A stretch of DNA of 64,000 nucleotides from Octopus vulgaris. Taxonomy: Eukaryota. Below, in pieces: positions 54,395 to 57,070 of this stretch (within the stretch, counting starts at the first letter, position 1; each line of letters starts with the position of its first letter). The translations under genes were made by a program, and so were the position numbers. The DNA lies in the NCBI GenBank assembly GCA_951406725.2, contig OX597829.1, positions 16,864,001 to 16,928,000 of the forward strand, in the 5' to 3' direction. A model generated the notes under the pieces. It saw only the letters and a program-made list of their open reading frames with translations, had not been told where the DNA came from and searched no databases.

Positions 54395-55042
54395 GGTATT
54401 AGTTTTTGAATATTGCTTTTTAAAGACAACATTCTGGGCTTGACGTGATCTAGTTGGAGGAAACAAAAAACGTATCAGAGATTTGACGCAAGTGAGTGCG
54501 CATTCTGGTGAGCGAAGTGAAAAATAGCTTGCTGCTTTCCTTCGTTGAGTGATGATCACTCAGCGATCCCTCAAATCAACGACTAAAGGAATCTTGTTTG
54601 GGATGTGATGTGAAGAGCAGTGAGCTGTTCATGGAATGGGCAAGACCGGAGAAAAGTATCTGTCGGATATTAAAAAGGAAGGCTGAGGAGAAGCGAGAAG
54701 TAGATAATACACGGTTGTTCATATGACTGAGCATAGTTCAATAAATGAGTTACCGGATGGAAGCGGAATTGTAATAGGCATTGGCAACAAAAGTGAATCA
54801 TGGTTTATTGTTATCTTTGTAACGTATCATGGCATGTTGTGAGTATAAATATAACATAAAATGATATGCAATTAAGAGAGGTTGGTACGAACTTGCAAAT
54901 ACGAAAGACCAACCGAAAAACTACCGAGTCATTCCGTTCGGTATCTCTTCGTTGTTAGTCCAGAAACAAAAACAATGAATTACGGAGATGTACTTGCATA
55001 GCGAGTGACTTGATCTGAGATCGTGTGCTGGAACGAAAACAA

Positions 55043-55247
55043 TTGCAGCGTGGAAGGTGTTTATAAGCCATTTAAGAAACACACAAAACCGTTAGATTCA
55101 CTTCAACATTTAAATTTAATTTGTCAAAATATTTTCGTCGCTTTCAGACCGCGACCTGTTCACTAACAAATTAAGTTCAAATGTTGAAGTGAATCTAACG
55201 GTTTTGTGTGTTTCTTAAATGGCTTATAAACACCTTCCACGCTGCAA
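55043..55247. repeat. 84-bp-arm inverted repeat enclosing a hammerhead-like core
   Basis: Arms 55043-55126 and 55164-55247. Confidence 0.95.
55118..55172 (-). ncRNA. Hammerhead ribozyme variant with G3:C8 core
   Basis: Minus strand AATTTGTTA-GTGAACA-G-GTCGC..GCGAC-GAAA-ATAT-TT-TGACAAATT. Confidence 0.7.
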
Positions 55248-55374
55248 AAACACATTGAATCTAAGTAGGAAACACAACTGTTACAATTATAACGCAAACA
55301 GTTCCTTGAAGACTTTTTTGCTTTGGGGTTCTAAAATGGCAGATGAAGAGAAAATGATAACAAAATGCTTATTA

Positions 55375-55810
55375 GGCGCAGGAGTGGCTATAGGCGCAGG
55401 AGTGGCTGTGTGGTAAGTAGCTTGCTAACCAACCACATGGTTCCGGGTTCAGTCCCACTGCGTGGCATCTTGGGCAAGTGTTTTCTGCTATAGCCCCGGG
55501 CCGACCAGTGCCTTGTGAGTGGATTTGGTAGACGGAAACTGAAAGAAGCCTGTCGTATATATGTATATATATATATGTGTGTGTGTGTGTGTTTGTGTGT
55601 CTGTGTTTGTTCCCCTAGCATTGCCTGACAACCGATGCTGGTGTGTTTACGTCCCCGTTACTTAGCGGTTCGGCAAAAGAGAATAAGTACTGGGCTTACA
55701 AAAGAATAAGTCCCGGGGTCGATTTGCTCGACTAAAGGCGGTGCTCCAGCATGGCCGCAGTCAAATGACTGAAACAAGTAAAAGAGTAAAAAGAGTAAAG
55801 AGTAAAGAGT
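55375..55810 (+). mobile_element. SINE family B with duplicated first ~17 nt
   Basis: AGGCGCAGGAGTGGCT occurs twice; (AGAGTAA)n tail. Confidence 0.92.
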
Positions 55811-56207: not shown

Positions 56208-57070
56208 TCTCTCTCTCTGTATATATATATAATAACAAAATAATAAATAAAACATATGCATACATATATACATATATGTACATACCTACATTTATATGTA
56301 TATATACATGCATATTTGGGTACAATGCATGTATATACATGTAGGTATGTACATATATGTATATATGCATGCATATGTTTTATTTATTAATTTGTTATAT
56401 GATCGAACGCTGCGCATCCACTTTCAAGTAAGTATATATGTATGTATGTATGTGTGTGTGTATGTATGTATGTGTGCGTGTGTGTATGTATGTATGTATG
56501 TATGTATGCATGTATGTATGTATGTATGCATGTATGTATGTATGCATGTATGTATGTATATAGCAAATAAGAAAACGGGGTGGATATGAAATCGACAGAC
56601 ATCAGCCAGTAAACATTCAAGAATGTCCTTTCATTTAATTGTATTCGATGAAATACACACACACACACACACGTATGTGTCGTACAGATTAACGAGTGGA
56701 AAAAACTGGTAACTGCATAGACAAGGGTGTGAATAAATATAAGTATATAGAAACAAATAGGCAAAAATATAAATGGGTGTGCAGGTGTCGATTTTATATC
56801 CTCCCCCGTTTTCTTATTTGCCGTATAAACCATGGGTAAATAACTTTTTTTTACCCCGCCCATATATAATACTCAATTGCGAGATTGCTATGCAATAACT
56901 AACACTTGACTATGAATAATTGGGTACACTACCAGCAGTATATTCGATAAGCACTATCCCTTAGTTGGTTTCTCAACCTCAAACTCACACAGAATATATA
57001 TATATATATATATATATACTCACGCACGCACACACACACACGCACATACACACAGACACACACATATATA

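Follow-up and report, generated by a model that had tools for sequence, protein, structure and literature searches.

A short head-to-head insertion of a Penelope-like element with a G3:C8 hammerhead motif in the Octopus vulgaris genome

The window analysed in this study is the whole stretch of 64,000 nt of Octopus vulgaris DNA. At positions 54980 to 55247 it carries what is, judged from sequence, a short insertion of an endonuclease-bearing (EN+) Penelope-like element (PLE), a family with several thousand short copies. The pLTR and tail are arranged as in Penelope-like elements, as laid out in the text of PMC3846280 and PMC8557442, and the insertion reaches 54980, 63 bases past the start given in the earlier note. 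The features, in window positions, are as follows.

54968..54979, plus strand: possible decayed target-site duplication, left copy (read from the sequence; uncertain)
54980..55247, no strand: whole insertion, two truncated PLE pLTR copies placed head to head, one of them tailed (alignment to natural family copies)
54980..55071, minus strand: start of the PLE reading frame, 30 codons from the ATG at 55071 (the same sequence continues into the RT frame in loci L269, L270 and L314)
54980..55042, minus strand: PLE tail, about 60 nt between two preferred 3' ends (bimodal 3' ends; compare the text of PMC11167929)
55120..55170, minus strand: type I minimal hammerhead with G3:C8 core (sequence, fold probabilities, descriptor versus shuffles)
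55170-55164, minus strand: helix I, 5' strand (sequence)
55157..55163, minus strand: core GUGAACA, G3 at 55163 and C8 at 55158 (sequence, family counts)
55156, minus strand: extra G after A9 (sequence)
55155-55151/55141-55137, minus strand: helix II, GUCGC/GCGAC, 5 bp (sequence)
Starting at 55136, minus strand: GAAA (sequence)
55133-55128, minus strand: palindromic helix III, AAUAUU (sequence)
55127, minus strand: U17 (sequence)
55126..55127, minus strand: predicted cleavage site after U17, between 55127 and 55126 (hammerhead numbering)
55164..55247, plus strand: second arm, inverted and tail-less, joined through the 7-nt helix I complementarity with an overlap of 5-7 nt (alignment)
About 55246-55260, plus strand: possible target-site duplication, right copy, with two single-base length differences (read from the sequence; uncertain)

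The sequence agrees with the earlier note in placing a GUGAACA core, with both C3G and G8C, on the minus strand, and helix II, GAAA, the palindromic AAUAUU and U17 were each located there; the extra G at 55156 had not been mentioned. The core bases U4, G5, A6, A9, G12, A13 and A14, the A15.1-U16.1 pair and H17 are all present in the window motif, which does not match the literal CUGANGA consensus. With any Watson-Crick pair permitted at 3:8, a hammerhead descriptor matched once in the window and never in 100 dinucleotide shuffles. Pairing probabilities in the native context are 0.7-1.0 for helix I and 1.0 for helix II; that of helix III is 0 in the monomer, and the AAUAUU duplex is worth -0.2 kcal/mol. 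Both the extra nucleotide and the palindromic helix III are known traits of metazoan PLE hammerheads in the text of PMC4209133. Because the core reads GUGAACA, searches built around CUGANGA, such as the Naiad search described in PMC8557442, would miss such motifs, and to this extent the suggestion that the motif is hidden from standard searches stands. In Rfam no hammerhead family matched the window motif at E<=10, and two C3:G8 controls were equally unmatched, so that the blank is not specific to G3:C8.

The 84-bp inverted repeat that was described as an unbroken continuation of helix I is real (55043-55126 pairs with 55164-55247; fold z-score -24), but it contains one C-A mismatch and two G-U pairs and is therefore only nearly unbroken. 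In the window copy helix I itself is 7 bp, with a private C-to-U change that produces a U-G pair, and the native helix I of 7-8 bp folds without the long arm. Since junctions also differ between copies and the second arm repeats the first in inverted form, the long arm does not belong to the ribozyme; the idea of an 84-bp helix as a ribozyme feature had to be given up, and a comparison of copies found arm length and junctions to be variable rather than constant. The long hairpin is likely a scar of element insertion, and the window insertion lacks the promoter and is likely inert. No exact flanking repeat was found by script at this insertion. A common dispersed repeat at 55373-55790, which we take to be SINE-like, adjoins the insertion and also lies beside several other family copies, and a second inverted repeat (66-nt arms, 95%, TA/CA-rich) occupies 56232-56398.

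A search of the 2.8-Gb genome with a 205-nt query returned 1,507 candidates, of which 40 were scored. The native unit is about 209 nt; many family copies lack the inverted arm, and 389 retain upstream sequence. The pLTR unit runs directly into the N-terminus of the frame in L269, L270 and L314, a continuation that a pattern search among 77 flanks did not reveal and that was found through the N-terminus of the frame. The parent frame combines RT with GIY-YIG at the C-terminus in a single frame (loci L206 and L211, with YVDD and DKSG motifs); Pfam scored GIY-YIG at 25.4 bits against a cut-off of 22.6 and assigned no RT family. The hammerhead motif follows the stop at about 1 kb and precedes the next ATG by 56 nt, and the traits of a PLE are present, namely pLTRs in tandem or inverted, an optional tail and a hammerhead inside the pLTR. 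A unit beside a GIY-YIG frame at L088 is a chance neighbour from another family. The linker before GIY-YIG, a short CX2-5CxxC, resembles the short Nematis type in the supplement alignment of PMC8557442, a likeness taken from the linker by eye alone. The RT3-RT4 spacing of the parent (133 aa; L206:3968-7045, minus strand) is longer than in the Nematis-type rows of the same supplement and is like that of a fingers insertion, yet the endonuclease is C-terminal. Tandem arrays of the hammerhead unit were also observed (L284:1743-3067, L282 and L184), separated by (TA)n in L284 and with a 426-bp period in L184; such arrays could permit dimer folding in cis or resemble retrozymes.

The ends of the unit were mapped in 96 arms sampled in their order on one chromosome. 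Fifty-two arms begin within the first 10 nt of the unit and none begins at the predicted cut, while the 3' ends cluster at two places separated by about 60 nt (42 and 54 arms), which are likely two reverse-transcription start sites; the 3' flanks are of TA type in 50 arms. TATATATG begins 30 nt (-30) upstream of an A that resembles an initiator. Of the 33 copies starting at AG-ATG, 22 have a non-genomic G in front of it, where the element itself has C or T. This pattern points to a transcription start 21 nt before G3 and a capped RNA, the extra G being cap-derived, and most copies extend uncut through the cleavage site to this likely capped start. The sharp 5' end could also be read as a splice acceptor, given the branch-point-like and AG sequence there, but this was set aside in favour of a start site: no exon consensus extends beyond -3, a TATA lies at -30, and a cap would explain the added G.

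The 3:8 pair was counted across the genome with a 21-base pattern in which positions 3, 7 and 8 were free and only exact matches were accepted. The swapped pair in the proposed consensus, GTGAACA, was borne out: 5,747 of the 6,272 matches are G3:C8, 176 have another base at position 3, and 203 have C or G at position 3 together with G8. Among the 200 deviant matches listed (100 per class) C3:G8 is absent, and 11 with C3 keep C8. In 65 core-covering arms selected by a downstream pattern that is blind to the core, 60 have G:C at 3:8, and core letters vary at 19 of 800 positions across arms. Contigs of four sequencing runs labelled as four organisms had no change at 3 or 8 among the matches listed. 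In addition, G3:C8 occurs in both branches of the family's deepest split. The claim of a natural covariant hammerhead thus holds family-wide and in a real hammerhead context; the family-wide core swap is well supported by these counts, from which we infer pairing between G3 and C8. An unpaired G3-G8 sublineage accounts for the 203 matches with G8 (about 3%) and occurs in both arms of some inserts and in three frame-linked copies; its members lie at G000 C16 0.6-6.5 Mb and elsewhere (loci L304, L305, L307 and L293-L297). Because these copies include both arms of some inserts and frame-linked members, the element can spread without the 3:8 pair. The sublineage represents either a step on the way to the swap or a loss that came after it, and a tree of 28 frame-linked copies, from which those with no motif within reach were left out, gives no order between G3-G8 and G3:C8.

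Two other PLE families in the same genome carry hammerheads with different 3:8 pairs. The sister family (about 52-57% amino acid identity in the C-terminal part) has a CUGAUGC core, so that the homologous site reads C3:G8. It shares the extra G, and its two 3' ends fall at corresponding codons; its hammerhead lies 101 nt before the ATG, compared to 56 nt in the G3:C8 family. It is very young (L207:6890-6935, L208) and its hammerhead carries A9C, a change expected to hurt catalysis; its frame of 1,312 aa includes an Asn-rich insert. The unrelated family is Neptune-like and abundant, with a U3:A8 hammerhead and a palindromic helix III; open frames of 781 aa were seen (loci L067, L069, L070, L073, L078 and L084).

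Whether the G3:C8 hammerhead cuts is a separate matter from its origin, and we lean towards real cleavage, slow or assisted; if it does cut, the G3:C8 core would be a natural variant of a self-cutting RNA. According to the text of PMC4209133, metazoan PLE hammerheads cut poorly and as dimers, and according to that of PMC11167929, an engineered C3G/G8C partly restores cutting, which needs protein and is not needed for insertion in vitro. The strongest competing explanation accepts the same PLE origin and takes the hammerhead to be catalytically dead or irrelevant, its fold kept, if at all, structurally or for protein binding, and G3:C8 to be two unselected steps. The G3-G8 sublineage with its frame-linked members, A9C in the sister family, the uncut templates (no arm of 96 starting at the cut) and the finding in PMC11167929 that core mutants left in vitro insertion unaffected all speak for it. 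Against this, the two changed bases are exactly complementary while the remaining core bases are all canonical, and the pair is shared across the deepest family split. Furthermore, subfamily-level variants fall on none of 42 core and helix positions but on 9 of 71 other non-coding positions (p=0.012, or p=0.058 once a wobble-keeping helix I change is counted), a modest test because some of the tested positions were fixed in the patterns with which part of the sample had been selected. On balance, a dead or irrelevant hammerhead appears rather unlikely, though it is the alternative to be taken most seriously.

The long arm had been attributed to fold-back synthesis primed at helix I, that is, to self-priming of one cDNA. 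This fits the junction of the window copy, which lies within helix I with the tail on the longer arm, and self-priming is proposed for such inversions in the text of PMC3846280. The family as a whole fits poorly. In 44 unselected head-to-head pairs (50 minus six near-identical duplicates of L099), junctions are scattered across the whole unit and only one joins at helix I. Exactly one tail is present in 42 of these pairs (92 of 95 in a larger, partly selected set), and it sits on the 5'-shorter arm in 30, for which fold-back of a tail-less cDNA is therefore excluded; 12 pairs have the opposite polarity, that of the window copy, and 15 have overlapping junctions, both of which fold-back would accommodate. 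Locus L115 has the same helix I junction as the window copy but the opposite tail and a target duplication, and L100 and L108 each join different subfamilies inside one target duplication. Fold-back is thus largely refuted by these copies as a general mechanism and is an improbable source of the inverted arm, although it may apply to the window copy alone, given the position of its tail and its helix I junction. Seven near-identical head-to-head inserts with one junction lie on one chromosome (L099, L101, L131, L132, L134, L135 and L138) and probably spread inside a larger repeat.

Flanking direct repeats of at least 8 bases, mostly 11-15 nt and some TA-rich, were found in 36 of 81 inserts, and another 25 lie in (TA)n (shuffled flanks, mean 1.5). 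Such AT-rich or (TA)n target sites with short duplications are as for EN+ Penelope-like elements. The variable target duplications and the mixed-subfamily pairs favour, at the level of sequence, priming on both target strands. Among 25 pairs covering loop II, four have arms of different loop II type (subfamilies), where about 12 would be expected at random; matching types in the other 21 are commoner than random (p=6e-4), and therefore the majority of inserts drew on a single RNA or a single source. A plain MITE or foldback DNA transposon, whose spacer resembled a hammerhead by chance, would account for the long terminal inverted repeat, high copy number and target duplications, but is refuted: it is the arms that vary, whereas loop and core are conserved, an inverted arm is missing from many copies, the arms are asymmetric (the tail), the pLTR and the start of an RT element's frame make up the sequence, and neither inverted repeats nor duplication length are fixed.

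The locus is thus most probably a PLE insertion with a swapped G3:C8 pLTR hammerhead, predicted to cut slowly and to do so only as a dimer or when aided by protein, in which the hairpin would result from priming on two strands. A parent with RT and C-terminal GIY-YIG in one frame, the motif lying downstream of the stop and before the next ATG, would be transcribed from the TATA (-30) and initiator 21 nt before G3 to give a capped RNA. Its endonuclease would cut AT-rich DNA with a stagger of about 12-13 nt, as the pattern of target sites suggests. Each cut strand would then prime cDNA, one at each of two internal start sites that lie within the frame's initial 30 codons and are separated by about 60 nt. 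Both-strand priming, two start sites and an uncut template have an in vitro precedent in the text of PMC11167929. The cDNAs would be extended back past the uncut hammerhead, in most cases as far as the cap, and microhomology or filler would connect them head to head; in the window copy the helix I strands may have provided the microhomology. G3:C8 itself would be a derived double swap that preserves the 3:8 pair.

About 150,000 PLE-linked hammerhead variants were reportedly described by Lunse et al. in 2017. In the text, figures aside, of seven papers (PMC3088659, PMC4209133, PMC3884650, PMC6155905, PMC6765202, PMC10085705 and PMC11014351), no natural G3:C8 was found; U3:A8 appears there as the natural covariation and G3:C8 as engineered only. 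An earlier natural case may exist, for example in literature beyond the text of these papers. The natural G3:C8 family, the C3:G8 sister and the G3-G8 sublineage provide an allelic series on whether PLE hammerheads must cut, and the thousands of short head-to-head inserts provide genomic support for both-strand priming from two start sites, until now seen in vitro for one element. We tentatively entertain a stronger version, in which a family of thousands of copies runs on an active G3:C8 hammerhead and its inserts record a dimeric RT that primes both target strands at two fixed start sites, sometimes on two RNAs that the palindromic helix III could hold together. If this is true, three of the four possible core pairs (C3:G8, U3:A8 and G3:C8) coexist in one genome, and in many PLEs regarded as 'hammerhead-less' the motif may simply have escaped searches for CUGANGA.

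Compared to the metazoan PLE hammerheads in the text of PMC4209133, the pLTR position, the extra nucleotide between 9 and 10.1, G10.1-C11.1, the small palindromic helix III and the lack of loop I are alike. Natural U3-A8 covariation and opposite-strand pairs are known there as well, whereas the core pair is G3:C8 here and C3:G8 or U3:A8 there, and the extra nucleotide is G here and H in that consensus; four GUGANC spellings gave no match in one text-searchable supplement file of that paper. A compensated natural 3:8 pair was likewise described by Perreault et al. 2011 (PMC3088659), the text of which names U3-A8 only. The Adineta Penelope inserts, as described in the text of Arkhipova et al. 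2013 (PMC3846280), have a TATA and initiator in the pLTR, the first codons within pLTR and tail, a tail on one inverted pLTR, target duplications and head-to-head junctions, all as here. The present family differs in consisting mostly of thousands of frame-less pLTR pairs or singles, in duplications of 11-15 nt rather than 8-10 bp, and in that both-strand priming is favoured where self-priming was proposed for Adineta. PAc (Poseidon of Anolis), in the text of Frangieh et al. 2024 (PMC11167929), also has a hammerhead near the start of the frame, two internal RT start sites that define the tail, and AT-rich targets. Its tail is 30-40 bp, compared to about 60 nt here, and the Zn-finger-like linker motif found here is absent from Penelope/Poseidon. 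In PAc both strands were cut and extended on an uncut RNA template in vitro, a pattern that is read here from genome copies, and the C3G/G8C change that was engineered in PAc, with partial rescue, is the natural state in the octopus family.
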